A DNA stretch of 64,000 nucleotides from Blasia pusilla. Taxonomy: Eukaryota. A program made the translations under genes and the position numbers. The notes beneath the pieces are model-generated. The model was not told the DNA's origin. It made no database searches and was given only the letters and a program-made list of their open reading frames with translations. Each line of letters starts with the position of its first letter. Positions within the stretch are counted from its first letter, which is position 1. The DNA lies in the NCBI GenBank assembly GCA_050084515.1, contig CM114271.1, forward strand, positions 13,330,001 to 13,394,000, in the 5' to 3' direction. Positions 1,650 through 34,720 of this stretch are shown piece after piece.

Positions 1650-4100
1650 GAAATAAATCTCACAGAACTTGGCTCATACGTCCATCCCGGATCGCCAACC
1701 TGGTCTATAAGACGCTGTCTCGACCCAGTAATCCATCTGAAAACCCATCGGGTACAATCATCGCTCCTCCAACTAGTACATCATACGACTCGGTGATGTG
1801 ACTACCATGCAGAATACTCCCAACCGGGAGCTATCGGTCGCATGATCTGGTCTCAACTGTCAGAAAACTTCTCCCGTGTCATGAATTGAGACCTATCATT
1901 TGCTCCTCCAAGTGATGTTTGAATCTGGAATGGGCAAGGCTCAAGCTCGACCTCCGAATACCCAAACCAATACATGCCGCCTTTCCCAACATCAAAGGTG
2001 GGCACCGAGTCTAACAAGACTCTATCTGGTCTATACACTGTCTGAGGACTCACCAATCGGAAGATCCCACTCCGGTTGTCCAACATACATACACCAGGTG
2101 TAAGCCTCTCACGATCAATGGTGGCCGGGCCGAAATGCATCCATCTTCGCCATTTCGCCGCTAAAGTAGCACTGGTACTCAATGCTACTCCTGACATAGA
2201 GGGTCGCTCCACCGCAACACCCTCATCCACCTCAGCACGTGTAGCAGTAACACCCCCACGTTCACACAACGTGGCCGCTAATTGAAATACAGGAGCTAAG
2301 TCAACTCCTAAAGCCATCAGCTCGTGGCCGAAAACAATGGGGATCCCAACACTGAAGTTGCCATCCGCAATACTGCATTGGATGTTGCATCCGTGTCTAC
2401 TACACGCGATGTAGATGCCTCATTCCCCACTGTCGGCTCAATAGGCTGCGTAGGAACCATGGATGGAGTCCTAAGCACCTCAGACAACAAGAATGACTGG
2501 GGAAGCCTAGCCTGCCTCCCAGCCTCACCCCTCTGTGGGTCCAACTCCACAGTAGCACCACGTGGCTCTGACGCTCGAGTGGCTCCTCTCGAAACTGCAG
2601 CTGATGCCTCAACTTTGTCTTTGCACTCGCCATATAAGAGAGATCATCCCTCCATAAGAGGTGGAAGCCCCTGCTCCCGAACTGATCTATCTTTGGATAC
2701 CGACCATAGTAGCCAACTCTGCTCCAATGCTCAATCTGGGCGACCATAGCGACTCTGTCAGAGTGGTAGGGGTAGCCACCGTAGGCTCTCCAACCACCTG
2801 GTCCACCTCTACCACCCCTACCACCTCTACCACCTCGGCCTCTTGAGCTACTTCACCACGGCCACGGCCTGATCTCAACTCGGATGGAGATCAAAGCAAC
2901 GCTCTCGAGGATGACCTAGTCTCCATAATGATCACACTGAGTTGGGACCGATCGAGGCCCATCCTCCAAAGTCCGTCTCCCATCCTCTTGGGGACAAAAC
3001 TTCCTAACATGATCACCTCCACATGTCCAACATGATCGATCCTTCTTTGCGGGGCAGCAAATGAAGGCAATGGTCTTGCACAAATGTCCCTCTAGGACTT
3101 GACGAGGTCGCGTGTACCCCACGACTCCCACTACTACTACCACCACCACCACTACTACGATCTTTGTGAGGTGGGCGGTGAACACGGTGAAGTAGTAGTT
3201 GTATCCCCCTCTTGAATGCGGATGTCACCACTCTCTCCTTCACCATGTTAAGCTCAATCTTCTCGAGATAGAGCAAACACATGGGTCAATGTGGGTGAAT
3301 CATCACTCATAAGAGTAGCATCACGCACCCTACTGGCGCAAATCTCGTCCAAGATCCCATACCTAAAAGCGGACTGCGCCGATCCTCAATCACACCCTGG
3401 TAATGAAATCAGCGCCGATACGCGTGTATGCCTCACGAAGACTCTCACCAGTCTTTCGCTCAAAGTCTGAAGATTCCTCAACTTCTCCGTCTTCACTCCT
3501 TAATAGTTCTTCTTCAACCTCTTGAAGAACTCGCAACAAGGGCTAAACGATGGTGGGGCACTAGTACCTCCACTAGTACCCCCACTAGTACCTCCACGGT
3601 ACCCCCACTCCGGCTCGACTCGTACCACTCAGCGTCGGCCGGGGTGGCATAGTAGGAGCACTACTACCAATACCACCATGGGTGATAGACACATAGCCTG
3701 GAGACCAATATTGTCTCCATGCCTCAATCTCAACAACATGGTCCTTCCTAAACTCATGGTAATCATCCATGGGTGGTCCTTCCAAGTCTTTGAAACAACC
3801 CCTTCCAAGCCAAGAAGGGTGTAAACAACGTGCGTTCGCAACATCTGCATATCACACCACGTATCAAACTCCTGCATGAAGTCCTCCAACTCAATGGTAC
3901 CCACTTTGCACCGAGTATCGTCGTGGGCCCTTCATGGCCCCATATCCACCGTCCATGTCCCAAATCAATGGAGCGCAACACTCGATAACAACGTAGAAGA
4001 CTCGGTGTTTGGAACACCTCGTCCTCCTCTTCATCAACCGTCGGAAGTGGAAAAGGTAGCCGATACCTAAATCCACTCCGTGTGAAACCACCATTGTCCC
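1650..4100 (-). pseudogene. E1 gag (capsid-like region plus CCHC knuckles) and aspartic protease, degenerate
   Basis: Peptides ELEDFMQEFDTWCD, EGPPMDDYHEF, CWTCGGDH and CPFQIQTSLGG align with E3 peptides (ELHDFIVGIRSWCD, EGAPMDDYHEF, CPFRIQTSLGG). Confidence 0.8.
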
Positions 4101-5676
4101 GCACCACGGTCCCCAACCAGACCACCCGACTGACTCCGTGATGACCAACGCCGATGCCGCACCACCACCAAATTACCAAGTGACGTCGATGTCGCTATAC
4201 TATTCTAACTCTACTAGCTATGGGTGTAGGCAACCTAACTTGTCATCACCACAAGAAGTCTCCCACAATCTACTCGTCATCCCTCCGGCCTCACTACCGG
4301 TAGCACATGGGAGTAACACTACTCGGGAAATCAGCGTCAACCCTAACAATGGCGCGCAAGCAAGAAGCACGATGGAGGGGATCCAAACACAGGAAATCCA
4401 ACAACAACCCTCCAATCGCAAATGGAAATCAAGGTAACACAATCCACCAAACTTGGTGCCCTCGAATCCACAAAACCCACCACACAATTCTAACGCAATA
4501 GCTACTCCGCCGAATGGTCGATGACGTGCTAGTTTAACGCGCAAAGACTGAAAAATATCACTGTATGGAGAGGCTACACCGTACTATGCGCTAGAGGTAC
4601 ATCAACCAGAAACCTGAGATGCATAAAGCGCCTAACACATCTCCGAACAAAGACCAAATGAGCTGTGATGCAGACACTTTGGCATAGTTAAGAACTCGGC
4701 GATTAAGCGTCCTCCAGGCAGAATAGCCCAAAGATGGGTGACCAGTTATGCAAAACTCAAATCCCAAATCCTGCAAAAATTGCCTCACGCCCAAGCAAGC
4801 AAGCTTGCTTGCTTGCTCCTTGCTCCTTACTCCGCCTCTCACGCCCACTCGCCCCGAGCTACCACGAGTTGCCTCGAAGCCTCGAAGCCTCGAAGCCTCG
4901 AAACGCCGAGAAATGCTCGAGACATGCCCCTATCGCCCCGTTCGCCATGGAGAGAGGTCCAACCAGGGCGCCCCCAACGGGATAGGCGTCTCCAAAAATG
5001 AACGAGTCACCAACCAACCAGCCCCTCCGATCCGATGTCCACCATAGCCAGACCTTGAGCTAGTCCGCGAAATTTCGATCAGAAATTACTTCACAAATGT
5101 GTGACCGAAATCAAATCTGTTTCGATCAGAATTTAATTGACCACCATAGCTATCTCCCCACAAAAACTCAGCTACAACCGAGCTCCGTACTCCGAGCTAA
5201 AAATCAGACAAACTTGCTGTCCATACACCTCTAGAACCGCAAAACCGACAAGCGCTCCGCCAAGTTTCATGCACGAGAAAATCCATAACGCTCCACGCAC
5301 TCGAGCAGATAGCTTCACATGAGATCACAATACAAGTAGCAATAGGAACCTCTCACCCGATCTGGATGAACTTCAACAGAGCTTCCGACTCCAAGCTCTC
5401 CACATCGTAAAACCGTCGAACACGACGAATCTTCAATGCTTGATAACTTCCAACTCCTTGACAAAATCCGGCGATCTACTGTAGCGTTGGAAAGCTCTCA
5501 GCAAGGCGCTTCTTTTCCAACCAACACAAGACCAGATTCACACCTCCAACATAGGCCACAAGCCACGAACATCCACGGCCGAGTACACATCGCCCTAACA
5601 GATCCTCTTGATCTACAATCGAAGCTACCATCGATCTCACGTCGGTTCTTTGAGTGAAATCCGTGAAAGACCTCTT

Positions 5677-6000
5677 TGTCATAAAACACGTTTACAATCA
5701 CATACAATCGAGCCAAACCCACTCCACGATGGGAGAATCTAGGTCGAAGCTTATGGAAACACCATAGCCAAGAGCTCTACTCACTACCAAGGCTAACTCC
5801 CAACGCAAAGGCTCAACTCAAAGAATGATCGTTCTTTGAGGGCAAGCCACCTTATATCCTCCAACCTAAGAGCGGGCCCCTCTTTGGGAAAGTCACCCCA
5901 AGTGAGTAACCCCAACCCTATGTATGGAACCGCATCTCTACCAAGCCACTACGGTCCTACATAAGGAATGGCCTCTACCAGCACACCATACTCTACGACA
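5677..6000 (-). repeat. Putative 5' terminal repeat/LTR of E1 (family III)
   Basis: Bounded by imperfect inverted ends TGTCATA...TACGACA. The minus strand has a TATA-like GATATAAGG and the GAGTGGGTTTGG motif shared with family II repeats. The partner repeat is outside the window. Confidence 0.55.
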
Positions 6001-6018
6001 TAATCCGTATGGTCATGA

Positions 6019-6150
6019 CATGGTTCTACTCGTGGTGCAACCACTATGCTAGTCTATGATGGGTGTTCGAGAGGGTGGCATATGGCATGTCTGACGCCAT
6101 CTCTCACTAGGATTCCTCAGGGACGATGGATGTGCCCCAAATGTACATAA
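6019..6150 (+). pseudogene. PHD zinc-finger remnant at the 3' end of a retroelement ORF
   Basis: Translates as HGSTRGATTMLV(Y)DGCSRGWHMACLTPSLTRIPQGRWMCPKCT*, the C-terminal part of the C4HC3 PHD consensus. One Cys appears mutated (TGT>TAT). It lies just upstream of the family II 3' terminal repeats. Confidence 0.85.
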
Positions 6151-6340
6151 AGTAGGTACTAAGTTGTTCTAGATTCTGACTTGTGTCTATGACATGGATG
6201 ACGAAAAGGCGACTAACGATGGGGCCATATGAGCACCCCGCTTTTTTGCTCTTAGCGTCCAAGAGATGTATGTCATGGTAGGTAGGGATAGATGGTCATC
6301 TGGAGTTAGAGGGACTTGACCACCAACTAGGGGGATGGTA

Positions 6341-7141
<801 letters not shown>

Positions 7142-16256: not shown

Positions 16257-16557
16257 TCTTGGTATCTAAACCTAATTTGTTTAACGTTTCTCAACATCGA
16301 CTTTCATTATGGAGTCCACTAAGCAAACCCTTCATTGATTTTGAACGGGTCGGTTGAAAGAGGGAGTTTGTAAGATTTCGTGGCTTGTCCATGGGAACTT
16401 ACCCTTTCTTGGTATCTAAACCTAATTTGTTTAACGTTTCTCAACATCGACTTTCATTATGGAGTCCACTAAGCAAACCCTTCATTGATTTTGAACGGGT
16501 CGGTTGAAAGAGGGAGTTTGTAAGATTTCGTGGCTTGTCCATGGGAACTTACCCTTT
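16257..16557. repeat. Perfect 150-bp tandem duplication
   Basis: TCTTGGTATCTAAACC...GGAACTTACCCTT occurs twice with period 150. Confidence 0.97.
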
Positions 16558-17165
16558 GGGAGGACAAGGGGATGGAGCAATATGGGGGGATTTAGGGTGG
16601 GGAGGTGTTTAGTGGGGAGTTCATTCATGAGTATCCTTAAAGCCAGTAAATGTCATGTGTCAAAGGTAATATTTCATTTGGTTTCCCATCGGATCACCTT
16701 GGGGCAGCCAAGTTATGATGTTTTAGGATATTGGGATGTCCTTATGAGTACATGGGAGACACAACCGCTCTATGTCTTATGGAAATTGCAGTTCCAACAA
16801 TTGATTCTATTAATTCCCTTACGAGGCTATATCCTCACTAGGTTGTTGACTTTCCAAATTTCGTATATGATTTCCTTCATTAGGTGCCTCTTTGCCTCAA
16901 CTTGTTCCTTTGTGCATGGATGCTCTAAGGATTTCCAGGACTTGCTTCCATAGGTTTGTCAAGCATGGTGCATGAACACCTTCTTGATTACTTTTTTTTC
17001 CCTAGGATTCCTAGATCCAGCGACTTCTTTAATTTTATCCAAGTTGTGTTTTAATTAGCTGTTGGGAAGCTTCTAGTGATAGTGGCCCAGCTTTTTGGGG
17101 GCGGGGCGACTCTTGAGGATGTCCAAGTTATATGGCTCGTAAGACTAAGTTGTGACCAAATCACT

Positions 17166-20100
17166 TGTCACATCTTAGTTTGCCGATAGGTAGAGTTCTA
17201 CCATGTCAATGGCATAGCGAGTCAATGGACTGTTGGGTGTAGCTTAGTCTTGAGATGTTAGTTGAAGTTGACGTTAGGTCCGTTATGTCGGGAACGTTGT
17301 TTCAAGCGATTTTCCTCCTTTTTTTTTTTTTTGCTGGTGATCTGTTGAGCAAATCAAGGGCCAACTAATAACCTGTGCACCCAAGTTACCGATGGGTTGG
17401 ATAATTTTAGGGGAAGAGCCCTTCCCCTAAAATTGGCTCTTCCCAAGGCTATATAAGGGAGAGAGTTCCTTCCTGTACCGACATATGTTACCCAGGAGGG
17501 ACCACGGTTGAATTTTTGGATGTGTGGTGGGCCACATAGGCAGAAGGACTACCCAGAGCATGGTAGAGGGCCTAGGGTGCCTCTGAGTGTTCAAGAGCCA
17601 CCTAAGATGGCCCCACCACAGTTGCAATATGATCATTGTTACCGATATGGTCATACTAGGGTTAGGTGTTTTGATCTTTGTCAAGAGCTACGTCCAGAGG
17701 AAGGCGGAGGGCCTAGGGTGAGAGAGTTGGTGGAGATCGAGGAGTCGATGATTGTGGTGATAGATTTCTACCACCAGTCATAGGAGATGGAGGACGTGCA
17801 CCTGATGCAGCGCTCCTCACTCGTATCGATCAGTTGTAGCACAAGATTTTTGCCATGACAATGATGCAGCTAGAGACACGCAACAAGCCGAGAGTGGCTA
17901 GTGTGGCTCTAGCCTCCACGACGTATCAGGATACGGAGGAAGATTATACGGGCTTGAGGTTTATGTGCAGTGTGGCTCACGGAGAGGTTGTTGCAATAGT
18001 GCCTCAGGGTGCGACGAGAGTGACAGAGCCAATGAGAGAAGGTGTTGAGATTGACCCACTGGAGGGAACCAATGGGCGACAAGCCAAAGTTTATGAGTCA
18101 TTTAAGTTGTTAGAGGCACTTCACACGCCGTCAATGGTGCCTCGATGTTCAGTAATGTCCACAGGTGAAGCAAGTGTGTCGACGTCATGAGGAGTTGGTG
18201 AGATGACTCCTATGCTGGCTTGGGGAGAGCCAGTGTCGACCATGTTGTTGGAGGTGGCCACTAGGGTGAGCCAGGCTCTGTTGTTTTCTGCCATGGAGTT
18301 GGCGATGATGGGAGTTGGACGAGCGGAGCTATTATGACTGGCCGCCATGTTGTGTGAGCATGGAGAGATGATTGCCTCTAGTTTGGAGGTGGTTGTTGAG
18401 GAGGTGGTGGACATACCCTCGCAGCACGTGCTCAAGACGTCCTCCACTAAGTCATGGTATGCTGCGACAGGGAAGTTGGTAGATATGCCAACTAGGCTAA
18501 CAATAGAGCGAGCCATGATCACGCCAAGTGTAGTGTTGTTGGATAACTAAGCTGAAGTGTTTTTCTTGGTTAGTCCCACAAGTATGGTGTACCATCCGTA
18601 GCGGATCCTACTTGATTCACGAGAGCAACCCTTTTATTGGGGAAGGCGAAGTGCTTGGTGTTGGGATTACGAAAAGGTGACATTGAGTGTTATCCCTTTC
18701 AGATACATACCTCTATTAGGGATGTATCATCCACGTAGTACATGACTCAACATAAGTTATTGGTTGGACTCTAGCCAAAGCATGAGTTGGATAGTGCAAT
18801 GATGCGCACTCGGGCGATTAAGTCAACAGTAGAGTCATATGATTTGTTGGTAGGGAGTACGGTGTTGTACCCCCTTGGTTTCATTCTGGATTTTTGGGAG
18901 GAGACAGTTTCTTATCAGCCAAGGTGGCAATTAGGTGATAGATGGATGAGCCATCTACCGATGCAATTTGCACGGTGCACTGGTGGTCGATCACGTGAGG
19001 ATACAATGACCACGTTAGCAGCATTCATAGGTGGTGTTAGCTGAATAGGAGAGTTTTTGGAGAGGAGCACACATGTGGAGGAAATTTCCGTAGCGGATAG
19101 TCCCATGGAGAGACATGTCTGGGTGGGTGTCTCTTCTCATGGTGTGGAGATTTTCTTACCATTGTTGTGTAAGAGCGAGGAGTAAAGACGAGCTTGTGAG
19201 GCAAGCATGGAGCCATGCTGGTGTCTTGGAGCATACAAAGTCAGGTGACGATCGTGCTCTTAAATTGGAGACTTCATATCTTCGGGTACCACATGTGTTA
19301 TGTGGTAGTGTTTGGAGCAGGGTACAAAAGTGTTAGATCTCTTCGAAGGAATCAACACATATTTATTTGCAGTGATACGGGGATCGGATGACACCACCAA
19401 TGGTGCTAGATGTGTATAGAATAGTAGATTATGTTAGGTAGATATGTGTGTGCTATCTGGAGTTAGGGGAGAAATTGTGGGGTCTCGGTGTATATGCATG
19501 AGTTTATTTGGTTTATGGATGGATCGACCGATATGTTGGAAAGATCAGTGTTGTGTGGTGTGTAGATGCGACCAACCACGTGGATTGTGTAGCGATGTGT
19601 TATCATGTGTATACGCATGACAATTGTTACATCTTAGTTTACCGTCAAGTAGAGTTCTACCGCATCGATAGCTTAGCGAGTCAACGGACTATTTGGTGTA
19701 GTTTTGTCTTGAGATGTTATTTGAAGTTTACGTTAGGTCCGTTGTGTTGGGAACGTTGTTTCAGGAAATTTCCCTATTTTTGGTCTTTGTCAATCGGTGA
19801 CCTGTTGAGCAACTCAGGACTAGTCGGTAACCTATGCACGTACGTTATTGATGGGTTGACTATTTCTAGGGGAAGAAACTTTTGGCTCTTCCCAAGGCTA
19901 TATAAGGGAGAAATATGGCTTTTCCAAGATATCTTTCTAATATTGGGTCGTTGGATCATCTCTCTTGCTTGTGTGTGAGGTAGCAACTAGGGTGCTAGCA
20001 TCCAGATTCCCTCATAGCGGAGGGTGGACGAGGGTTGATATGCTGATGTAGATTCAAGAGTGGAGTTTTAGACCGGATGAGCCAATTTTTACTCTAATTT

Positions 20101-20239
20101 TTGTTGTGGGGTCTTGGTGTATATGCGTGTGTTCATTTCGTTTATGGATGGATCAACCTGTGTGTTGGGAAGATTGGTGTTGTGTTGTGTAGATGTGACC
20201 AGCGATGTGGATTGTGTAGCAATGTGTATACGCACGACA
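17166..20239 (+). mobile_element. E2: internally deleted DNMT-retrotransposon (family I) with both termini. Order: partial A1, gag knuckles, protease, DNMT motif I, B1 (19475-19622), AT, A2 (19625-20103), B2 (20104-20239)
   Basis: Termini are TGTCACATC and GCACGACA, flanked by the 4-bp TSD CACT (17162-17165 and 20240-20243). Peptides: WMCGGPHRQKD, HCYRYGHTRVRC, RILLDSREQP, ESYDLLVGSTVLYPLGF, LDLFEGINT. Confidence 0.92.
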
Positions 20240-20386
20240 CACTCTTAGACTTTGTATTAAAATCACAAATACAAAAAAATTTCCACGCAATCTTTCAAAA
20301 AGCATTGACGTAACCTAAACATGGAGAAAACTCTAAATATGAGAATCCTAAAACTGCCATGGTTCTCAAACTATATGCCTCTATTG

Positions 20387-20910
20387 CATCACATCTTTTG
20401 TAGCGGATCGACAAGTGTCTTCACCGTGTCTTCGAGGAGGTTGGAGGACAACCTGAGGAGGTTAAGGATGACATGTTTAGGACTAGCTAGGATAACTTGA
20501 TAGAACAAGTTTGCCCTTATTTTAGACTTATTTGGAGTAATATTAAGTAACTTACTATTTGGGTAAGTTCTTATTGTGAACAAAGTTGTCTTTTCATTTC
20601 GAAAAGTGATCATTGGTCCACTATTGCAGTCAAGAGACAACTTAGCCATCATTGGTCCACTATTGCAATCAAGAGACAACTTAGCCATCATTGGTCCACT
20701 ATTGCAATCAAGAGACAACTTAGCCAAGGAAGTGACTTGTGCGCATAGGTCACCAAGTAGAGAGTTTGGGGAGAGGGAAAGGATATACCAAAAAAAGAAA
20801 GAGTGATCTAGATCATTCTTTCTTTGACAAACCTTTTTTCCTAAGGTGGCAAAGCTATGATTCTCCTTGTCACGTGAATTCTCAATAGAAAAGTGGGTTT
20901 GGCTTAAAGA
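20387..20910 (+). repeat. Family II terminal-repeat (A) fragment containing three 39-bp tandem repeats (20609-20725)
   Basis: Aligns with the A segments at 6451 and 35611. ATCATTGGTCCACTATTGCA.TCAAGAGACAACTTAGCC occurs three times. Confidence 0.8.
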
Positions 20911-21968
20911 GACCTCGAATATATAAGAGATTCGATGTGCAAAAATACATCAACTCGTGAGAGAGTGCTATATAAATTTAAGAGCTTAAAGGTGTTTGCT
21001 GCCGTGATCGACAATTTCCAAGTACTTGCATTTCCCCGGTTGGATTTTTCTCATACTTTTGCTAGTCGGATGGGGAATTCTTAAATTTTACAAAGAATGC
21101 CGGTTCTATTACTCCGTCGTTCGGCTTTGAAGTAACACTTCAAACCGCACTATCAGGAGTGAGCCTCGAGTCACAAGGCATGGGCTCCACCTTAGTTCCG
21201 GGACTTCCGAGCAGGAGCAATATCAAACTGGTTCTGGTTTCTGAAGATGGCGCCTGGGTCAGCATAAGCAGAATGAAATTGCCTTGGAATTGGTCAGAAT
21301 TTCATAAGATCAAAGCTTCTATCGGCGCCCTAATCTCACATGCGCATGATGCATCTGAATCTCGTGAGGACCTCAACCAACCTTAAGAAGCTCTCACATT
21401 CTGCATTCGCACGTGACGATCTCTTTTCATCATAACCCCATGCGATTTTCATCCTTAACACTCCGAGCCCCGGGCTTCGAACCATTCATATATTCATGTT
21501 CAAAACGGTAGGCAGGCGAATAGTCTCCCTCACCCAAGCATTTCGTTCCCCAGGGCCAAATGCTCCAACGTAGGCGAAATGTAAATTTAGTGATGGTTGA
21601 CTGTGGGGACGTTGGCACATTGCAATTTATTTAAAGAAGCTGAATGGTGATGAAGAGTCCGCGAGATCTTCCATGCATCTACTCTACCTATCTCATTGAG
21701 AGCCACGAGATGCTACACCCCACGACGCTCTTGATCTACAAATCTACAGTTTCATTCAATCTGGACCTTTTTGTATGGTACAAAGTAAAAGGGCGGGCGG
21801 GAGTTCGAGTTGAGCACGTCAAACTTTGTGATCCTACCAAGACGTGGGTTCTTATGACAGATGCATATCAACCGATTACTCGTCGAAGAAAACCCCCCAA
21901 TCTCGTGACATCTCTATAATCGGTGGAAGAACTAAGCAGTACGGGTGAAAACTGTTCCAGCGGTGAGT

Positions 21969-24900
21969 TTAGGTTATACGAACAAACAGTGGGGAATTGC
22001 ATTTTTTTGCGAAGTATACGAAACAAGCAGCAAGCAGCACGATAATGGCGACGACTAGGAACACAATTCCAGCAATGATGCCCCCAGAAGCCTTTCTCTT
22101 GCTGTTTGGGGCGGGGCCGTAATATGCCTGGCACCAAGCACCATAGCATGTTAGATGTCTACAGGCGAGCAAGCTGAGAATTGCTTGAGGTGCTTCGTAA
22201 TATCCACAAGCTCGTGCGAGAGAGGATATGCTCGGCACCCATGGTTTGATTAAGACCATAAGCTTTTCTCTGCTCTTTCATCTTTGAAGACATGAGAAGA
22301 CACTAATGCAGAAACACTCATCTCTGTGACATTTTACTGAAAGGAATCGAGGCCAGCAAGATGACTCACCTGCCCAGGCGCAGGGTAGCTTCCTGGTCTT
22401 TCCAAAGGCTGCAAGGCTAGGAAGGTCTCATTCGCAATCCGTCCTTTGAACTGTGAGAAAACGTAAGTGCAAATGGTGAGCACGCAATCTTGTAATCCAA
22501 AAGCCCTCCAACCGCCAAAATCACTGATGTCCTGAATGTGCTTGGCTGGAACATACTGATGTACTGAACTTAGACGACCAGAAGTGAAAAGCGATGGCAT
22601 TATGGACGGATAGAAATGAGGTTTGAGCGTCACGTAAGTTATCTTCCCATAGACTCTTACCTCCCAAGAATGTACCGTCATAGACACCAGATCATAGACT
22701 GGAGGCTGAGCCGTTACACTTCGTGCACCAGTTTCCGGATCAAACTCAACGATCCCGGTGCACCCATCATATCTCACTCGTTGTTTCCCACTCGCATTAA
22801 AGGCCTTGTAAATATTCAGTCTTGTTACTTCAAGTCCTGCTGCTCTCAGGTCATCGATTATTTCATAGAAAGCGATGACAGCATCAAATAAATAAGGCAC
22901 GTACGACCGAGACTTATTGGCCCCTGTCGCTGGTAGACCCGGATATTTGGTTGCGAATTCCTGCCAATGGCTATAAAACTCGCTGCATCGGGAGCTAGAT
23001 GAGAAGTCCCCACCTATCAGCAAACAAATGTGCAGAAGTAATCAGCTACGTTCATGTTCGTCACAATACATCGTCAATCTGAAATCAGCATCAAGGAACA
23101 GTCAGCCCAGCCACAGAAAGTAAATTCCAGAGAGCTTATCAAACACGCATCATATGCACTCAGAAGGGAGGCTCACCGTAAGGAGCCAACCCTATCTCTC
23201 CTTCAAGCGCGTTCACCAACTCTGGACCTGTGAAGTTATACTGATGGTGTAAGAAAGATTCGTAAGAAACTCACGAGAACACTCACACTTCTCGTTTAAA
23301 GAAGGCCTGCCTTCCATGAATGACACGCTGCAGTTAGATGTTCTATGTATATGCGCATTTCTCAGCTAGAATATGTTGTACATTTCTCAGCTCCCTTACC
23401 CAAGCTAGTTTCTCTTCAAATCACCGGGGAGTGACCAAGAGCTTGTGATATAATCAAGAAACATGTCACGGCTCTCGACAATTTGCACAGAAAAGATAGC
23501 CATCTGTCTGTTGCTAGAGCTCCCTGTTGATCAAGGTTCATGTTTGAGCCAGTAGACAAATCTTTAGGGTTGATATGGTAAAGAAGCACGTCATGGCCCT
23601 CAACAATTCGCGAACAAAAGAAAGCTATCTGTCTGAAGCTAGACTTCCTTGTTGATCAAAGTTTATGTTTAAGCCACCGGACAAATCCTAGGATTCTTCA
23701 TTCAAAATCTTACCCACGTCAAGAGGATCGAACGCCGTAGCTCCATCCGTACCAAAATACCACCAAGGATACCTGGTCTTTTCCTGAAATGTTATGGTAA
23801 CTTGTGGCTCAGAGATTACAAAGAGAAACAAACTTGAACTGAAGAATCTAGGAAATCGCAATGCATTTATTCCCGCTGTATCACATCAAGTTGAAATCTC
23901 ATGCTCAAGGACAGGTGCAGATGGATCCGATTGAAGAATCCACAACACAAGTAAAGGTTACCAACCATCTGATAAGCAATTTTCCATATGTCTCGCGCAA
24001 CTGTAGGCTGCACAACAAGAATGACGAAGTCGGTTGGCTGGAGAGAATTCAGTAACGATTTAAGTTGATCTCTGTTCACTGTCGCATTATAGCCTGGCTC
24101 CAGTAGAAACATTCGGACTCCTCCCACCGTCTGCAAGAAAAATGGGCTATTTCAGATCCGAAATTCTCCGTTGAGAAAACGCTAAAATAAGACCTGCATT
24201 TCTTCTCTTCGGATTCACAACGTGGGAATTAGAAACGCCTTCTGAGTTCCATCACCGTAGCACCTATTTCTTGGATGCCAACAAACACTCTTTCTGCTCT
24301 GCTGGACTAATAGTGTGTGAACGGACGACTCTTATAGAAGTAGGTAAGAGACACAGTTTCTTAAATTGCTAGAACACTCTTTTGGTTTCGTGGCATAATA
24401 TTAATTAGTGAAGCTTTGTAGGCCAATTCTAGCTCCTGATCTAGGCGTCCAACGAGCAACCACGCTCCCACCCATCATGCTGAAAGCCTAAGAGATTGAT
24501 TTCATGGTTGATTATTGCGTAAATTCCCATAAACGCCATTGTCTACATTTAGAAGAGCTACAATTTTTGTTTCCCGGAGGATAAGGTAGGGGGCAAGAAA
24601 CCAAAATCTTCTCCTGTCTCCATGTATCTAACACCGTGACCTGTAAGTAAGCTTACAGGTCTCCAATATGGACACCCGTAGCCGCACTTTTATTCTCCCC
24701 TCCATAAAGCTCGTCCGTGATGGAAAGTGGAAAGTAGATTGAGACTAAAATTTACGACATTATTTGCCTGTTGCAGTGGATCTAGAGCGTCTCGCAAGCA
24801 GTACGAGCAAGTAAATTTACCATATTGATCTCGTTCGCCAAGCTGTTGCTGTAATAGTCACTGGTGTATAGTAGTGTCGCATTGGTTATGCTTAATCTCT

Positions 24901-27645
24901 CCATCTGCACATTCAAACCCGAACTCGCTCAGAAATGTCTTGCTAAACTGAATGAAAATCATCTGAAAGGGGTCCGTTGCACTCCTTTAACCAAATCTTA
25001 CTTCAGGGACTGATTAGTGGAGAAAGGAAGACGCAAATCGGAAGGACGGGATGATGGAAGAGGACTTTTACGAGTCTACATGCGTTTGTTCTTGCTCAAA
25101 GCCCGTCCGTAGGTAGCATACGTTGACAGTATGTGTGTCTGTGTGTCCAGAAGAATTGCTTCTGACCTTAATCCCTCATCGATGAACTCAATTTCCCCCG
25201 CCCATAAGATTGCATCGAAACAGACTGATAAAGGTCCATCATTACAAAATGCATGGTCTTGTATTGCAAGAGAAGGCAGCCCGCTTTAATTATGGGTCGA
25301 ATTCAAGCAGCCTCGAATGCGCTTATTCAAGTTCACTTTTTACCGTTTGCAATAGCTGGAAACTTTCACACAGCCTATGGAAACGAGAACGAAGTCTGAA
25401 TTTATGTCAGAAGAGCACATACACTAGCTGCAATCGCATTCGCTTGATGCTTGTCACTATACCTGCAATCATCCAACACAGTATTCTTGTTGAAGTCAGT
25501 TGAATGCCATACTTGGAAGACAACCATCAGACTCCAGATAGTAGAAACACTTCGCGAAGTGTACGCGTGGTGTAGATGATTGGTAAACTACCGAAAATCT
25601 CATAACTAGATTCACTTGGCAGCATTGCATTGGTGCATCGAATTCAGCCTAAATCCGCTCCAATTAGTTCAGGTTCATTTACACAAGATTAATTGCCGTG
25701 TGATGAAGCAGACCTACAGCTACAAACAAGATCAACAACTGCCCGAATCCTGGTCTCTAAATTAGCGTCAGGAGCGCAATGAGAGGTCCGACATCCTCAC
25801 ACAGTGCGGAAAAAAGTTGGGAAATATGCCCGGCTCGACAAGGGCTCTGCGGTTGCCGAGAAGGATACCAGTGCTGCAGGTCCTTCTAAATCAAAGATTG
25901 GAGCAGCACCTATTGCAGCCCCACTACACACCGGACCAACTGCCCCAATCAATCCATCATGTCGTAGCATTTTGCTCGCCGCAACTTGTGCCGGTAAGAA
26001 AGAACAATCGCTATCCTCGAGTAAGGGTACGAGCTGGTAACTGGTGCGGTTGGCATTCATGACTTCCACAGCTACTTGAAATGCAGATCGCCTGCAATTT
26101 ATCATGACAAATTATTAGCGATATAAATGCGAATTCGTTCTGAACGTCCTGGACAAAGAGCGCTTTCCCCTAAAATTTCCCAGCAAACAATTCTCTGGGT
26201 TTTGTTCGACCCATTGTTGCTTCAGTTTGGGAAGTCGACGGGAAAATGAGGGAGGTGCCGATACACCAAAGTAGATTTCAGGAATTTTTGAATATCCTTG
26301 AAACCACGAGGTGTCGTAGCGCGGAAAAATCTTCGTCGGGTCTGTGCAATTGCAAATGTCTCCAAGCTAAGACAATCGTTTGCACGTCGTGTTTACGTCG
26401 AGCTTCTTGACACCAGTTCTAGGAACCAAATTCCATGCTAGCGCTCACGATCACCGGTCCATTCTTACCAGAGAATAAGCACCTCCGAACAATAGCTATC
26501 CAAATGCCTTTCTCAGTGCTGGAAGAAATGTATATACGCTCCTCCCCACAATTCCATCGATCGGCTGGAGATGCAGAGTTTGTCAGAACCCGAAGCCTAG
26601 AAACGGTCAGAAGCTCAGCGCCTCTGACCGTTTCTATCGCCAGAGCGTCTCAAGAATGCTATTATGCTGGCGCCGTGAAAACAGAAGCGCAATTACCGAG
26701 GGGCGTAGGAATTGAAGACCAAACTAGGACTGATAGCCTCTACGTCTCAAGAAATGATCAAAATCCAACCAGAGGCGTCAATTATCCCCTCGCGAGACTT
26801 TCCGATGAAAAGATATCGGTTAACTTTTCGATGATGGAAACTACGTCTCTGCTTGGGGGACTATCGCCAGAGGGGAAATGGGACTACATCGACACTCGTT
26901 GTGGAAGACTAAGAGCGGTTTCTCTCTACTTTTGGTCACATTCTCCAAATCCCCGGAGTCCGTTTCAGCCTCCTTCATTTTCTCAGTGTTGCCTTCCCAA
27001 TTCTTCAGTGCTTCAAGCACACGCCAAAACAGGATTCTGAAGCCTCTTGTAAAACCCACGACTACCTGGTCGACGGGAATCCTGAAGAGAGCTTCCAAAG
27101 TCCGGTTCACGCATCCGATGATTATTCAATGCGGGATATGGAGAGAACAATGCAGGTCTACTACGGCATGGTGAAATTGGAGCTTTGAGGAACACCGTCG
27201 GGTTAGCACAAATTCAATGCTGTAACACTATCCGTTTCGAATTCAAAACCATCTAGTTGCGCACAGTCTGCTAAGAAGACCTCAGATTACACTGGCGTTT
27301 AATCACTTGCACTTGCACTTTAATCACAGTGCACTTGTAATCATTCAAATCCTATTCAGACTACTGCGACGGACTTCATCGCGCACCAATTCCCAGGTTG
27401 CAAGAAGCATGAAAAGGTTGCCAGAAGACGGCTTACCATTCCGTAGCCAAGCTTGCTGGAATGTTTGTTCCTGGCGAGGGAGAAAGAAACCCCAGCATAT
27501 ATGTTCCATTCGTTGCAGACTCTGCGAATATTGATCCTGGACGCGTCGGCCATAGTAGAAAAATGAAGATAAGCTGGTAGCTAAGGAGAAGTTGGAATAT
27601 GCTACGGGGACGTCTAACCAGGCCCGAAGGAAGTGACGAGTGCAT
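21969..27645 (-). CDS. Single-pass membrane protein with an extracellular Venus-flytrap (ANF-receptor / periplasmic-binding type I) domain, ~500 aa. Exons: 27645-27437, 26091-25801, 25462-25423, 24904-24821, 24130-23966, 23783-23714, 23227-23177, 23013-22661, 22450-22370, 22127-21969
   Basis: All introns are GT-AG with consistent phases, and the spliced length is 1503 nt. Hydrophobic N-terminal segment (IFQLLLSYQLIFIFLLW). VFT motifs: AFQVAVEVMN, GAVGPVCSGAA, VSFSATAEPLSSRAYFPTFFRTVYSDKHQANAIA, WWYFGTDG, PYLFDAV, YDGCTGIVEFD. TM helix IIAGIVFLVVAIIVLLAACFVYF followed by AKK. The last exon/stop is less certain. Confidence 0.88.
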
Positions 27646-29741
27646 TGGCCTTGCGCGCTTGGCAGGAACACGGAGACCGAGAGAGAGAGATCACCGCACT
27701 GTGGGTTTCAAGTAAGGTGTCTAACAATGGTTGCACATCCAATCACAGCCACGAGAACCAGTGAAATGGAATGGAAAAGTCTTCCTAGCTTGTTGAACAC
27801 ACTATCGGAAGTTATGTGGTGGATCCACGCGAGCTGACAGCAATCTCCCCACACCCACAGCGGGCGGGACAAACGAAGCTAAATTTTCTCAAAGAAAGAC
27901 GGACAAACAAATATCTTGGCCAGGCGGTTGAGTCTCACTGCTGTGAAACGCATACTGATTAGTGTGGGACAGTGTGGAAATTTCAGTGTCTGAAGTAGAG
28001 GCAGGCAGAGAGCTTCACTGATGAGGGACTGTCCCTTCTTATTAATGTGCGGCACAGAGATACGTGTCAGGCACCCCTCGTTAAAACAGAAGAGCGCGAG
28101 GTGACGCGGTCGCGGAAGCAGCTTCTCGATCAAAGAGACCAAAATTTTTCACTGAGAGTCCGCTCGTTTCCGCATGACTTGTGGATAGCACTTCCAACGT
28201 CACGCACATCGAGGTGGGAGCGACCTCAGTGCGGATATCTCGACGCGACTCCGACTTGAAATGACGGCCCCAGAACGTTACTGGAAATTGCCGATGACTG
28301 CAGCAGAAAGCACCGGATCACGAGCTGATGAAAGGAATTCGCGCGGCAAAGTAATCCAATACGCAGCATATTTGAGCCAAAGACTGAACCAAAATCCATC
28401 ATACTCAACGCAAAGTCACGCGCTCAACGACTTATTAAGGTTTCCTTACCAAAACTTCTATTCGGAAGTTCCACACCGCAAAGAAACTTCTAAGAAAACA
28501 GCGATTCTCTCGTTGCCCTCTATTAATGCAACAACCACCGATCGAAGCTCTACCATAAGAGAGGTTTACACACGAAAGAAGTTGCACGTGCAATAGTCCG
28601 AGAGTTCAGCATTTACGATTGCGGGAAGGGAAGATACGATGCTCGAGACTGTGAGACAGCAGAGCCTGTGAGGGAAGAACCAGGCGAGCGCTGGTTTCAT
28701 AGGATTCAGGGAGCGATAGAACCAAGGCACGTGAGACCTGTACAACTCTCGCTGAGCCTCACCCTCGGAGGAAAACATTCCCGTCACGCCCGTCGTGGGG
28801 GGGGAATAACCGGCCACGGAGATCCTCGGCATCTTTGTTCTGACTGTACGCAGTTCCCCGTCCGGAGCAGATTACCACCGCCGCTGCGAGGGCTCAAGGA
28901 CGACGGGCACAATCTCGGTAGGCATTAAAGAACGGGCCCACCGGTTAGGAGGGCACATGCGGGGTGCAGGTAACCGGTAGAAGGGTGGCAGCAGGTGCCA
29001 GCGTTAGCTCTCCATTAGTACTGTTCATTCTCTGAAGACAAGGGCGTGGGGGCCGCGTCCGGGCGAAAATGTTTTTCTTTTTTCCACCATATCTGCCCGC
29101 TGCCCTGACACCGGGCCCGCCCGGGCAGAACGGGCATATCACGAACGCACCTGTTACTGTCTCCGACAAGGCCCCGCCAAAATGGATCTTACTGCGGAGT
29201 GCGGACCGCTCAGTGGCCGATAAAATGGTAGAGTCTAGAGAGAGACATCTCATCACGTGTTGTTTCTCCCTTCCGCTACTATTGTACGCTTTTTTTGTCG
29301 TTTCGCTGCCTCACCCGTTTAAGGCTTTTTTTTCTTAATTATTTTCTTATTTTCTACACCTTGTCATCTCGTGTTTTCGTAGGTATGCTGAATTTGATGT
29401 CATCGGCGTGTTTGGTTCTTGGTATAGGCCAATTTTTAATCAATTGTGGAAAACCATCATAGGGGCAGATATGGAGTTTTTATTGGATTTAATTATTCAG
29501 TCCAAAATCAAAAATCTTATGTTGTGATCCAATTGAAATTCTGACTAGTCCATTCCCTTACTATGCACAAGATTGTAATTACTTATGATTCGTGATTAAA
29601 CTAACCCCTAGTAATTTTAATTGAGTTTGCAAATCAACTTCTAATGATCCTATTGGCTAAGAGAGCAAGCGATCCATATGACTGAAAATTACAAGGGCAC
29701 TCCAATAATAATATAGATTGCCAACCAACCTTATAACCACA

Positions 29742-29946
29742 CTAGTGTAAGCCCATGCGATGCACTATTTCTATTATGTTTATGGTATCTCCTATAATTG
29801 ACTCTTGCAATGTTCAAGTGTCATTTTAAATTGATTTGGAACTATCCTATTGGTTTAGAAGGAGAGCTGTCCTATTGGCTTAAAATGCCAAATGTCGAGT
29901 AGATGAGTTTCCAAAATGAAAGGGCACTCTCCAATAATAATATAGA
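29742..29946 (-). mobile_element. 205-bp non-autonomous Helitron
   Basis: Minus strand reads A|TCTATATTATTATTGGAGAGTGCC ... GTGCATCGCATGGGC...CTAG|T, an insertion between A and T with no TSD. A second 5' end of the family is at ~29695-29717. Confidence 0.8.
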
Positions 29947-30993
29947 TTGAGGCCCCAATGGATTTGAAATTTTTTTGTTGTTACATATGTGGCACCCAAT
30001 TTAAAATAACACCATGTGTTGTGGCAAGCCTTGTGCACCACATGATTCCTTTTCATGGCATCCGACTCCGACCCTCTATTACAAGGGCATGACCAATTCT
30101 ACCATTTCAAATTCCTATCCTAAAGTAGTTAGTTTTGTATGTGTGAGCACAAAAATGTTAATTCTCCTTTTATACCATTAAGAAAATGTGGGCCTTCTTT
30201 CAAGCTTCTTTGGTTTGAGGCAAATTGAAGTCTTACATTAATGAACAAAGCTTTCGTGTCTTTTTCTGTTTATTTTTTATTTTTTACATGTGCAATCCTC
30301 GCATATATTATATAATATGCGCTAATCTTAAAAAAAAATTGAGGTTATGCATGAATAAAAGAAGGATTTTGGAAACTAATATTACAATCCAAAGGAGAGC
30401 GAAAAAGCCAACTATATTTGCTAGTATACCACCATCTTAAAAAGAAACGGGGTATGGAAACTTACCATACATTCACAAGTTTCCTTTCCATCTTTTTCAT
30501 CGTACTTTCGCTTCTTCACTAAGATAGGTCGATTGTACTCAACATTTTATGTACTCTATTTTGGATCCTCAACCCCCAACATAAAGAAAAAACAGAAAAA
30601 CATAAATAGGTATTTATATGTCGTACATAGAACGTATTGTAGTCATAATCTACGTAACATCTGCTTAGTCGCGAAAATGATGATGACAGCCTTAGCCTTT
30701 ATCACCTCCCTATTTCCATTTAAGCTCCTTGTTTCATTCTTTATTGAGGGACACTTTAATTACCAACTTTGCACTCGGTAATCCCTTCTAGTGGTTACTA
30801 AGTACTAGGCATTATCATGACACTTTGCGTGTGTCGTACAGCCCGCTTTTCCAAACCTAGCTCAAAAACTTAAGTATTTAAAAGGAAAGCGTCTGCAATC
30901 CTAGACTTGGCCCCGATTAGGGCTCACCCCATTCCTCTTATCGGCTCGCTCTTAATGCTCTTATCCTCTTTAGTTTCACATACATCATGAATA

Positions 30994-32264
30994 TCTATAT
31001 AGTGGGCGACCCCACAACTACAGCAACATTAAGACGAATTTCAATGGAAGAGAAAAAAACATTTATTATATTATATCTTATAATTTACCTAATTAATATT
31101 TAATGGGTGATTTTAAATTAAAAATTTTTAAAAATGAATTAAAATTTTCTTAAATCATATTTAATGAAAAAAGAAAATGAATTTTAATGGAAAAGAAGAA
31201 ATGTTTGAATTTGAACGGAAATATTTAAAATATTGGGATATCATTTAAATTTTATTTGATAAGTGGAGTTATTTAGAAGAGAAATTTGATTATTATTTTC
31301 AGATTTAAGAAAGAAATTAAAATTTTGAAACATTTTTTTTATTTTTAAATAACCAAATTATTGATATGTCACGTCTTTTAGGATATATTGGAAAAATTTA
31401 GTATAGAATCTTCATGTGTAGCGGAAGACACCCTTAGGAGGTCAATTATGATTTGTTGAGGCCACGAATATGAGAGAGCAGATTTCCCTTTCGTTTCGCC
31501 TCATTTGGAATCATATATAAAAACTTACTATTTTGGTAAGTTCCTATTTTGAATATATTTAACTTTCCATTTTGGGAATTGGTCTTTGATCCGCTACATC
31601 ATATCAAGAGCCAAGGACATGACCTGCGAACATAGGTTATCGTGGAGAGATTTTGGGAGAGAGGAGGGGGTATACCTCCAAGAGAGAGAACTTGAGAGTT
31701 CTCTCTCAAGTTCTCTCAAGAACTTCTTGAACCTCTTGGCATGAGGCGGAAGAGTTATGGTCTTCTTTGCCTTTTATATGAGAGAGAGAGATTTGTGTGC
31801 ACCATAGAGAGATTGTGTGAGATCTACTTGATTTTATTGGAGATATTTTGGTACCTCTCGTCTCGATGTTTGGATGTCATGAGTTAACATGGGATCGTGA
31901 GTGTTTGTGTGTGTTCGGTGACAGCGATGTATGTTGTGTGGCGATGTGTATATGCACGGCGGATATTTCAAAAGGAAAATGAATCTGAATGGAAAAGGGA
32001 AATTGATTAATTAATTAAAATTAACTAAGAATATAATTAGTCAATATTATTTTGGTGGGAAAAATAGAATGGGAAGAATAGGTATTGTTCAAAATTTCAT
32101 GGAGGAGTGAAATTAATTAGGGAAGTTGAGTTTTATTTAAAAGTTAAATTCTTTTATTCTTGTAAGATTTAAAATTATATGAATTATAACAAATTTTGAA
32201 ATAAAAAATATTTCTGAATTATTAAAAAGTCATTTTTGTACGAAAGCACAAGCATGCTAACTAG
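30994..32264 (+). mobile_element. AT-rich non-autonomous Helitron, interrupted by a solo retroelement repeat
   Basis: Starts A|TCTATATAG and ends with a weak hairpin then GCATGCTAACTAG|T. The same 3' end occurs at 47004 and 53265. Confidence 0.65.
31367..31961 (+). mobile_element. Solo A+B terminal repeat of family II DNMT-retrotransposon
   Basis: Runs TGTCACGTCT...GCACGGCG (degenerate GCACGACA) with the 4-bp TSD GATA. The related Helitron copy at ~46672-46710 shows an empty site with a single GATA. Confidence 0.9.
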
Positions 32265-32899
32265 TAAAGTTAGTGACTGTTGTAGATTACCAATCGATTG
32301 TTTCCTCTCGTTAACAAGCTTTATTGATGAGGTGCTAGACCCATGAGCATACCGGCAAGAAATGCCTTCTATGGATTCTTGCTTGTCTCGCATGAATGTG
32401 TCCCATGATTTCCCCATGAGGCATGATTGCTAGGATCAGGTAGTTGCTTCAGAGGCCCCCTAGGGAACCATCCCCTCTATGGCCCCCCAGGAACCATCTC
32501 TTACCACTGTGGCGCCCTAACAATGCCATATAGGTAGAGGAACATGTTCTTGTATGTCCCTATTGTAGGAAGCAACCTATTGGATACGAGAGTATACCGT
32601 AGTAGCCCCCTTGGAGGACGTGGTTGAGACGTTTGGTTCAAAGGTCCGATACACAAGGGTCACCCTTACTAAATCTTGAGATTCTCTACCCCTATTACTT
32701 TTGGATGATTCACTAGCACTAATCATTCTTATTCTCCCATTGTTGATGTTGCATGCATATCTCAAGAATGGATGGTGGAGAGCCACCCAAAGTTCCATTG
32801 GGCATACTGCCCAAAGATATATTACCCTCCAAACTGAAGCAAACGTTATTTTCCCGTGGATGAGAAAGGTATATTCAATTGTGAACTAGACGAAGAGAA

Positions 32900-34720
32900 G
32901 AGCAATGATGCTTACAGATAGCGGCCATTAGAGTGAGAGTCCCAAGCCACGTTTCACTTATGAAAGCTTCCACATTCGAGAACGAGCCTAATTTTCAAGG
33001 ATACAGCTTGGAAGAAGGTAATGACAATTTATTTACAACACAAATTTTGTAAATGTTGAAATGGTAGGAGCCACGATTGGAAACTATTTTAAGCACCAAT
33101 TAAGAAGGGTGTCCTGGGAAATTATCCGCCACAGTGGACCTAATGTACTCCAATCAACAAATTTCGAATGTTTAGCTTCTTTCTTCATTTTGACTCACTC
33201 TACAGCTTTGATGTGAACATGTTCTACAATTCCAAGGTCATCCCATCAAACCAAGTATACATGAACTTTGATGACTTTGAGTTGGCTCTCCATTGTTGGT
33301 GCTCCCTTAATTCCAGAGCAAAGAGTTGTGCATGAAAAAAGAAATGGTATCGACTTCGCACCTACAAATATGGGGCTAAGATAAGAGGGGAAGGTCTCCC
33401 TAGAAAATTTGAGGCAAAGTTTTGGAGTGGCAGTGAGCCTCTTGAACATGATGGTGGGTATGCTGGAAAGGAATCAACAAGACATCCGCCGTGTGCTCAG
33501 AACGCCTCTTAGAAGATATAACTAAACCCATAGAAGCTCTATTCTACATGAAACTACGTAGACTTCCAAGAGAAGATTTGGATTGGACTGAGGGGAATAG
33601 GCACTACCATCTTCCTACAACCAATATGGCGGCTCTAAATGTTTCCTTTGTGGGCTATGATGATGTTTCCGCAAGGGCTCCAAAATATGTGAACCCATTG
33701 GTGACGAGCATGGAGAGCCTATATAAAGCGGCAGCTAGAGATCCTTGGCTTTCAGAAAATGGATAATGTGTCTCAAATTCCATTGCCTCCCAAGAATGAT
33801 AGTCGCTCGATGGCTAGTGACAATTACCCTACAATAGCTAGTATTTCCAAGGAATTGTGGACAATTTGGCATTAAGTGTTTTGGGGTAAAGGGAAGGAAA
33901 TGAGGACCCTAGAATTTCTAGATTGATACTCTGATTGGTTGAAATAGAAAAGCATCATATCCAAAAGATTGGCGACATAGCTGCTTATATCTAAGAAATA
34001 GGACTTGAGAAGTTTGCAAGGCGTGCATTTAGGGTGATCTTGATGTGGAAAAGTTATATTGTGGAGGTTATCAATTCTACAATCAAACCAATTAGAGATA
34101 GTCCTCCTCTAGGCATTGCATATGGATTGTGGAATCATATGATGAAGACTTATGCTCATAGGAAGTTAGAAACGTACCACCCCAAGAAACACAACATGAT
34201 AGTAATTACTTATGCCTTACTTCAATATTGGAAAAACGAGAGTAGTTGTTAGGGTTTCGAAGTGATTTCCTTTAATGAAGCAAATGGCTTGGTTCTCAAC
34301 AACTAGTAGGCACAAAATTTCATGTTCAATTTAGTCCCAAGTGCCAATGCTCTTGCCTTGAATTTCAAGACACACGTTGGTCTTATACTCATATAATGGC
34401 TTGGGACATGTTCATTTGAATGGACTTAGAGAAGCTTTTTGATCCTATTTGGAAAAAACATTTATCAAGCATATTTACACAAGAAACATACTAGTGTTGA
34501 AGTGTGATGACCTCATATCATCTTGGGAGTTTTGGCCGCGTTCTTTTGAAATCCCACGAGGAAGGCATTGTCTTATGCGCATTCCCAACAATGGATCAGG
34601 AAGGTCACAACGGGACAAAAATTATAAGGAAATCTCTTATCGGATCCATGACTATTCAACAACTCAAAAGGTATCCATTGAAGGAAGTCTTGCAAGAGAA
34701 CAAGGCGAATTAGGCTTGAG
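32900..34720 (+). pseudogene. Heavily decayed Mutator/MULE-like transposase remnant
   Basis: SWIM-like finger FHVQFSPKCQCSCLEFQDTRWS(Y)TH at ~34318-34392, among fragmented ORFs. Boundaries are approximate. Confidence 0.5.

Follow-up and report, generated by a model that had tools for sequence, protein, structure and literature searches.

The element studied here, E2, lies at 17166-20239 of a 64,000-nucleotide stretch of the Blasia pusilla genome (GenBank assembly GCA_050084515.1, contig CM114271.1, positions 13,330,001 to 13,394,000; hereafter the window) and carries direct repeats that are split between its two ends. Each repeat comprises two parts, A and B, arranged around the internal region in the order A1-internal-B1-NN-A2-B2, where NN is a spacer of 2 nt. 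An earlier note, made from the sequence alone, had claimed that this layout coexists with TG...CA ends and 4-bp target-site duplications (TSDs). It does, and elements of the family to which E2 belongs natively have this layout, which is not the product of rare nested or tandem insertions. The best explanation of the data as a whole, to which we attach a probability of about 0.6, is that E2 is a dead copy of a Ty3/gypsy element with a DNA methyltransferase of its own (Gypsy-DNMT), that such split-repeat elements would be self-priming, and that their cDNA would be permuted and then opened by integrase.

The split-repeat layout in E2 and its relatives

E2 is flanked by the TSD CACT at 17162-17165, with the identical four bases again at 20240-20243, and all of its parts lie on the forward strand. 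A1, the 5' repeat (17166-17462), ends just past its TATA box at an internal deletion that joins it directly to the zinc-knuckle region of gag. The internal remnant (17472-19380), located by tblastn with proteins P0017, P0016, P0018, P0022 and P0026, comprises the gag C-terminus with its CCHC motif, the protease and the initial part of a methylase; stops and frameshifts abound, and homology is confined to residues ~290-899 of P0017. The purine run AGGGGAGAAA (19465-19474) adjoins the 5' side of B1, in the position of a polypurine tract (PPT). B1 itself (19475-19622) ends in ...ATGACA, and the spacer AT (19623-19624) separates its terminal CA from the TG with which A2 begins. A2 is a full A (19625-20103; start TGTTAC, TATATAA at 19899-19905) and contains a stretch, called 'mid' in the earlier note, that is the putative R-U5. 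B2 (20104-20239), with the 3' end ...CGACA, completes the element.

Comparison of the window with itself aligns A1 (17166-17462) to A2 (19625-19911) with 77.5% identity (E 7e-63), and B1 (19475-19600) to B2 (20104-20227) with 84.9% identity (E 1e-34). Together with the coordinates, this agrees with the earlier claim that E2, with termini TGTC...GACA, is a single insertion between the CACT duplications whose 3' end is B1-AT-A2-B2. E2 is nevertheless an old, dead and internally deleted copy, and because its A1 is truncated by the deletion, E2 alone is uninformative on the native 5' end.

Relatives supply what E2 lacks. Metagenome contigs were scanned with an alignment of the methylase, giving 80 loci, of which L073, L074 and L079 have no readable ends. 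When each was compared with itself, L035, L048 (the same locus as L051), L056 and L076 showed a full polyprotein between A1 and B1-NN-A2-B2. No intact copy has two full A+B long terminal repeats (LTRs), which the earlier note had named as grounds for refutation. The B1-NN-A2-B2 3' end also occurs in L005, L010, L031, L049 and L075. The split-repeat 3' layout was counted in seven distinct metagenome loci, plus E2 and a second window element, E0. A more distant family (L076, 16076-16544, and L078, 11735-12152; methylase identity to protein P0002 46% and 42%, respectively) shares A1/A2, B1/B2 and the purine tract before B1.

The context of the individual parts is equally consistent. Across the 80 loci 28 B copies were found, preceded by a purine tract in 18 cases, by the end of an A in seven and by a deletion joint in three. 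Seven A copies have a B after them, and all seven have B plus 2 nt before them. No B precedes a full 5' A copy in any of 11 cases (nine distinct metagenome loci), and none follows the 5' A at any of 11 metagenome 5' ends (nine distinct loci) or at the two informative 5' ends in the window (elements E1 and E3). The earlier note had seen similarity between the solo repeat and E3 or E4 end about where B begins; this is exact to the base, the last homologous positions being 36132 and 63019. When the sequence past A in E3, E4 and E2 was compared with five B copies, none of the 15 comparisons reached the highest score among 100 shuffles.

The outer ends of these elements are those of an integrase. 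In the metagenome 4-bp TSDs (TCTC, CATA and AAGG) flank the start of A1 and the end of B2; 4-bp TSDs are carried by L025, L035, L048/L051 and L056, and by three window units (CACT, GATA and AGGT). The C-terminus of the polyprotein lies ~200 nt upstream of B1. The spacer is not conserved, being AT, GC, TC, AC or GT among relatives and RNA reads. Set against a canonical Ty3/gypsy element, the family has TG...CA termini with short TSDs, and the Ty3-like order of reverse transcriptase (RT), RNase H and DDE integrase. It lacks a pair of complete LTRs bordered on the inside by a primer-binding site (PBS) and a PPT: the purine tract adjoins B1 and not the 3' LTR as integrase defines it.

Coding content and relationships

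Gene content was established mainly from relatives. Read through its stops (stops as X), E3 gives a single Pfam match, to C-5 cytosine DNA methylase, and its open reading frame (ORF) matches a methylase protein of 396 aa, P0001 (E 1.6e-41), whose 90%-identity cluster has members named from Sphagnum jensenii and S. troendelagicum. Longer relatives (n = 42) come from Marchantia polymorpha, Sphagnum fallax and unnamed contigs; their Pfam labels are Asp_protease_2 (PF13650), DNA_methylase (PF00145), RVT_1 (PF00078), RT_RNaseH (PF17917/17919), Integrase_H2C2 (PF17921), rve (PF00665) and PHD (PF00628). In L064, an intact metagenome copy, ORF1 holds protease and methylase and is followed, after one in-frame stop, by ORF2 with RVT_1, RT_RNaseH, Integrase_H2C2, rve and then PHD. 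In intact relatives ORF1 runs from gag through a CCHC knuckle and an aspartic protease to a DNMT3-like C5 cytosine methyltransferase. Among solved structures the closest are DNMT3A for the methylase (E 2e-9) and Ty3 Gag-Pol for ORF2 (E 4e-98); P0002 shows the methylase motifs FGG, PCQ and ENV. A single in-frame stop between the two ORFs is present in both L064 (5083-5085) and L062 (4661-4663) and suggests that Pol may be expressed by stop read-through.

The earlier note had asked whether pol encodes a DDE integrase or a tyrosine recombinase. The domains found are those of a DDE integrase (rve, Integrase_H2C2); a tyrosine recombinase (PF00589) was absent from the intact L064 ORFs at E<=0.001, and none of the 42 long relatives has it as a Pfam label. 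Judged by its predicted proteins, the family is a bryophyte (Sphagnum-type) lineage of Ty3/gypsy retrotransposons with a DDE integrase and a PHD finger. Its most unusual gene is the DNMT3-like cytosine methyltransferase, which the earlier note had missed.

With Ngaro/PAT-like elements of the DIRS order, to which the earlier note had likened E2, the family shares the split direct repeats A1-ORFs-B1-A2-B2. The relationship itself does not hold, RT and RNase H being Ty3-like. Ngaro/PAT-like elements use a tyrosine recombinase and typically insert without a TSD, whereas here the integrase is of the DDE type, the ends are TG...CA and the TSDs measure 4 bp. Judged by these sequence characters the family is not of the DIRS order: it lacks the recombinase, makes TSDs and has a Ty3-like RT.

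A much closer parallel is KnitGypsy-Dnmt3 of Klebsormidium nitens, in which a Dnmt3 domain is part of the Gypsy Pol polyprotein and DIRS-like repeats accompany Gypsy domains (de Mendoza et al. 2018, PMC5890265). As far as the available parts of that account go, the likeness extends to Gypsy domains, a DNMT3-type methyltransferase within the polyprotein, repeats in the order A-coding-B-A-B and a streptophyte host, although that host is a charophyte alga and the present one a bryophyte. The elements of the window are bryophyte members of the KnitGypsy-Dnmt3 kind, grouped with it by these described features rather than by sequence. A split-repeat layout on a Gypsy body is real but, on the same partial account, already known, and the novelty that the earlier note had seen in the hybrid architecture falls away, since the same combination is stated there. 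TSDs, terminal bases, the placement of PBS and PPT, and mechanism are not among the features given in those parts of the paper. What appears to be new here is the placement of two putative priming signals: a G-rich polypurine tract directly before B1, and a stretch after A1 whose complement lies past the TATA box, in two diverged lineages. None of the titles listed in the literature searched reports this architecture from a bryophyte (most subscription journals and Repbase reports lay outside its coverage), and within that literature the name KnitGypsy-Dnmt3 was found solely in de Mendoza et al. 2018. Gypsy-DNMT elements are not an oddity of Klebsormidium, being present in Sphagnum and Marchantia and transcribed in the species of the window; their distribution is relevant to work on bryophyte methylomes.

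Putative priming signals, transcripts and a possible route to the layout

A G-rich purine run stands directly 5' of B1 in every copy: CCACCA(A/G)CTAGGGGGG in the L0xx family, AGCTAGGGGGGG in L064, AAGGGGG in L076, CTAGGGGGA in E0 and the run in E2 given above. The other expected signal, a tRNA-type PBS, was rejected by inspection, no copy having TGG after A1. Instead, the stretch immediately following A1 has its reverse complement within A, 25-31 nt past the start of the TATA box where a TATA box was found. Each of 11 5' ends was compared with 1000 control windows taken from the following kilobase. Complementarity reaches 16/16 in L056, 15/16 in L005, 15/16 in E3 of the window and 13/16 in L048, each unequalled by any of the 1000 controls; in L022 it is 12/16, with six of 1000 controls as good. 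All five of these significant complements lie at one place, 174-185 nt upstream of the end of A. In E3 the PBS-like stretch CAAAGAGAGAATGAG (36133-36147, + strand), the putative self-priming site, is the exact complement of 35949-35963, and none of 2000 shuffles matched this 15-nt complement. Of note is the fact that the PBS-like sequences themselves differ (ACTCAAAGAAC... in the L0xx family, CAAAGAGAGAATGAG in family II of the window) while the pairing is kept. In E1, for which no control windows were drawn, ACTCAAAGAAC follows A1 and its complement lies 31 nt past TATAA. The best site for the PBS-like stretch of E4, sought in the LTRs of other copies, is always 29-31 nt past the TATA box.

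The complement within A is also the second arm of a short inverted repeat, which is kept in all seven 3' copies. Deletions of 12-29 nt in this inverted repeat affect four of nine aligned 5' A copies and none of the seven 3' copies; they could reflect chance, instability of the palindrome or a trace of reverse transcription. Predicted folds of the presumed R-U5-PBS RNA close through the PBS pairing (z -2.9 and -3.3). Together these features suggest tRNA-independent, Tf1-like self-priming. Elements of the Tf1/sushi and Tcn1 groups likewise have no tRNA-type PBS and carry, after the 5' repeat, a stretch complementary to the presumed start of the transcript; the parts of the source available predict self-priming for plant chromoviruses of the Tcn1 clade in moss and club moss (Neumann et al. 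2019, PMC6317226). Unlike the present family, those elements have two complete LTRs, and the likeness rests on the design of priming and not on phylogeny. They carry a chromodomain instead of a PHD finger and are not known to encode a methyltransferase.

Transcripts of the family exist in the species of the window. Raw RNA-seq reads labelled as that species, from three runs, were mapped on 17000-36999 at 80% likeness. The region includes a spliced, expressed host gene on the minus strand (21800-28400; introns 22127-22368, 22451-22660, 23011-23173 and 23783-23964), whose introns have CT..AC ends, that is, GT..AG on the minus strand. Because the first mate is opposite to the RNA strand in this gene, the reads from the elements can be read as sense. 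Depth over the A of E3 reaches 94-184. Sense reads join the end of B to the start of A over 2 nt, with spacer GT in 26, 47 and 32 reads in the three runs, AT in 14, 18 and 12, and AC in two sets of ~14/37/10 and 7/16/8; spacer GC appears in 87, 150 and 87 reads as loose ends, which continue as the start of the A of E1. Reads passing from the purine tract into B number 83, 128 and 84, with a consensus agreement of 0.92-0.96. These counts are no more than suggestive of B in RNA being mostly B1, since reads from the end of A into B that fit a solo copy would escape the detection of loose ends.

If the purine tract and the PBS are assumed to act in their usual roles, then the following route can be proposed. 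The transcript would start at the PBS complement, ~25-31 nt past the TATA box in A, and this start would pair with the stretch after A1. Because of the roles assumed for the two signals, reverse transcription would yield the linear cDNA (B-NN-A)-PBS-internal-PPT-(B-NN-A), in which each LTR is B+NN+A. The ends recognised by integrase (...CA NN TG...) would then lie inside each cDNA LTR. As integrated copies, flanked by TSDs, run from the first base of A to the last base of B, the parts of the cDNA would have to be permuted by B, which implies that the right end of the cDNA (the end of A) joins its left end (the start of B) at what becomes the A2/B2 junction. The two termini would be joined in a junction of the 2-LTR-circle type; integrase would then open the molecule by cutting each strand within the 5' LTR, at its CA-NN-TG, and insert it. 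A spacer that is not conserved is expected, since integrase would discard those bases.

The A2/B2 junction is consistent with such joining. It reads TTTTC followed directly by AGTTGTGG in five of seven copies, with one substitution in L056. In L035 a 17-nt filler is present at the junction, along with CG, the dinucleotide that comes after the purine tract at B1; joined cDNA termini with a variable plus-strand start would be expected to look like this. From these sequences we infer that end-joining followed by cleavage at CA-NN-TG by integrase is the most likely route. Minus-strand priming at the start of A2, at the 3' end of the RNA or at the inverted repeat of A2 was also considered: none of these yields A-internal-B-NN-A-B, and all leave the conserved purine tract and PBS unused.

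The nearest known intermediate is the retroviral 2-LTR circle, a dead-end by-product with a palindromic LTR-LTR junction that integrase can cleave, in which four bases separate CA from TG. The likeness lies in the ...CA and TG... ends placed head to head and in a junction of joined termini that is mostly precise, with occasional fillers. The difference is that here CA-NN-TG would be built into every LTR, and the junction of joined termini would be present in every integrated copy. If this is true, the family makes obligatory use of what retroviruses make as a dead-end by-product. One may speculate that B, which is GT-rich and present only after the 3' A, might confine polyadenylation to the 3' end.

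Several observations weigh against this explanation, and its main weakness is one-sidedness. Cleavage at the other, identical CA-NN-TG site should give the mirror form A-B-NN-A-internal-B, which was seen at none of nine distinct 5' ends; that the 5' LTR is completed earlier during reverse transcription, or that the mirror form is lost faster, would be no more than guesses at the reason. Ends of the form PPT-B-flank, with no A2-B2, account for nine hits at seven distinct loci (L009/L020, L011, L015, L025, L032, L037/L045 and L066), and two further ends carry deletions; in L025 the A...B copy is complete and has the TSD TACA. Such copies may have arisen by recombination between B1 and B2 or by direct insertion of an LTR-less A...B fragment. 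In the L076/L078 family ~17 nt lie between the recognisable end of B1 and the start of A2, and the flanks of B2 are alike in the two loci, which makes any placement of the true termini tentative. With regard to priming, the tRNA-independent mode raised in the earlier note is plausible in view of the absence of TGG and of the complement at five of 11 5' ends; the remaining six of 11 have no complement in their own A1 above controls. Among these, L076 is not significant; L012, L018, L025 and L035 have 12-29-nt deletions at the complement spot of the 5' A, and L034 an insertion. The match in E4 is weak (10-11/14, equalled by 17-123 of 700 controls), the RNA folds depend on the 5' end chosen by the analyst, and the RNA-seq reads gave no usable start or end positions for the transcript start or the poly(A) site.

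A rival is replication of the DIRS/Ngaro type in which integrase has replaced the recombinase, B1-NN-A2 is the bridging template for regenerating termini that the transcript lacks, and the purine tract and PBS have no classical role. The repeat layout equals that described for split-repeat elements of the DIRS order in the available parts of PMC5890265. The B1-NN-A2 junction is indeed transcribed, and one-sidedness is the rule in DIRS-order elements, where its cause, whatever it is, could also act here. We consider this reading unlikely: RT and RNase H are Ty3-like, there is no recombinase, and TSDs with TG...CA ends are those of an integrase-type insertion. It would moreover leave as unexplained coincidences the purine tract at the start of B1 (18 of 28 B copies) and the complement that covaries with the stretch after A1.

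The PPT-B-flank copies raise a different possibility, that the true product is an LTR-less A-internal-B molecule cut at the internal sites of the cDNA, and that A1...B1-NN-A2-B2 is a rarer by-product, the only form to propagate because it has the promoter half of A inside its transcript. Among the 18 B copies that follow a PPT the PPT-B-flank form is as common as B1-NN-A2-B2 (nine against eight, with one at a contig end), and the complete copy in L025 has its TSD. This abundance proves nothing, since B1/B2 recombination with the TSD kept gives the same form, and end-joining would still be needed for the propagating form; the proposal, which we regard as quite improbable, would modify rather than replace the end-joining explanation. 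An ordinary LTR element with two complete A+B LTRs, in which B1-A2 junctions and B-less 5' ends are secondary products of tandem LTRs, nested insertions or deletions, is very hard to sustain. E2 and E4 are truly rearranged, with internal deletions, and the solo A+B units resemble ordinary solo LTRs; however, the consistent lack of B after the 5' A (0/11 metagenome and 0/2 informative window ends), the B1-NN-A2-B2 end in seven distinct loci, E0 and E2, in families too diverged for DNA alignment, the TSDs at A1 start and B2 end, and the position of the polyprotein C-terminus ~200 nt before B1 all speak against it.

Should the end-joining explanation extend beyond the copies analysed here, it would describe a Ty3/gypsy lineage, spread from bryophytes to green algae, with integrase ends in mid-LTR, an obligatory joined-ends intermediate opened at CA-NN-TG, an integrase-based origin of split repeats independent of that in tyrosine-recombinase retroelements, self-priming and its own DNMT3. 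This wider claim is tentative, and we would lean somewhat against it at present. The placement of the PPT and the self-complementary PBS turns what was a remark in a figure legend into a testable model for split-repeat elements with an integrase, and similar reasoning may help with an old question, how split repeats are regenerated in elements of the DIRS order. In practical terms, programs designed to find pairs of equal LTRs with a PBS and a PPT just inside them would probably misplace the borders of such elements.

Other copies and features of the window

The window holds no intact copy. In tblastn searches the Marchantia protein P0017 is covered at residues 1-1247 by E1, 13-1074 by E3, ~290-899 by E2 and 1050-1129 by E4. 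E0, the 3' part of a family-II element on the + strand (6021-7141), begins with the C-terminus of its polyprotein (6022-6144), followed by a purine tract (6320-6340), B1' (6341-6448), the spacer AT, A2' (6451-7118) and a truncated B2' (7119-7141). This bears out the earlier claim that family II has the same 3' layout at 6341-7141. The R-U5 part of A2' is expanded at 6866-7086 by a microsatellite, a long (GA)n and then (GT)n; a short GA/GT-rich stretch occurs at the matching position of E3.

E1 (1-6020, - strand) interrupts E0, the element with the 3' end at 6341-7141, in the region coding for the C-terminus of its polyprotein, and extends beyond the edge of the window. Its 5' end at 6020 (TGTCATGACC...), overlooked in the earlier note, is preceded by no B. 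A1 occupies 6020-5656, the PBS-like stretch 5655-5645 and the gag-protease-methylase region 3956-202, all on the minus strand. A six-frame translation of E1 with stops read as X gave no Pfam match, and the element was placed by tblastn.

E3, of family II and on the + strand, begins with an A1 that is a 5' repeat without B (35611-36132; TATA-like sequence at 35920-35925). Beyond its PBS-like stretch a degenerate region of gag, CCHC motif, protease and C5 methylase extends over 38092-40754 (PF00145, E 1.1e-5); RT and integrase are gone and the 3' end is lost. E4 is a + strand fragment (62932-64000) cut by the end of the window. It consists of the final 88 nt of A (62932-63019), the PBS-like stretch from 63020 and the C-terminal region of the methylase (63739-63999); without the entire upstream part of A, it is a rearranged copy.

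Two solo A+B units are flanked by 4-bp TSDs, as previously reported: one of family II at 31367-31961 (+ strand, TSD GATA) and one of family I at 61458-62073 (- strand, TSD AGGT), the right end of the second being 62073 and not 62075. An isolated A-like fragment of family I lies at 34766-35268; it lacks its first TG, a B and any recognisable PBS, and unrelated AT-rich DNA follows it. Just 5' of E2, at 16257-16557, a 151-bp sequence is duplicated in tandem with 100% identity. An inverted pair of ~600-bp repeats (43748-44346 and 48416-49003, 79% identity) possibly marks the ends of another mobile element.

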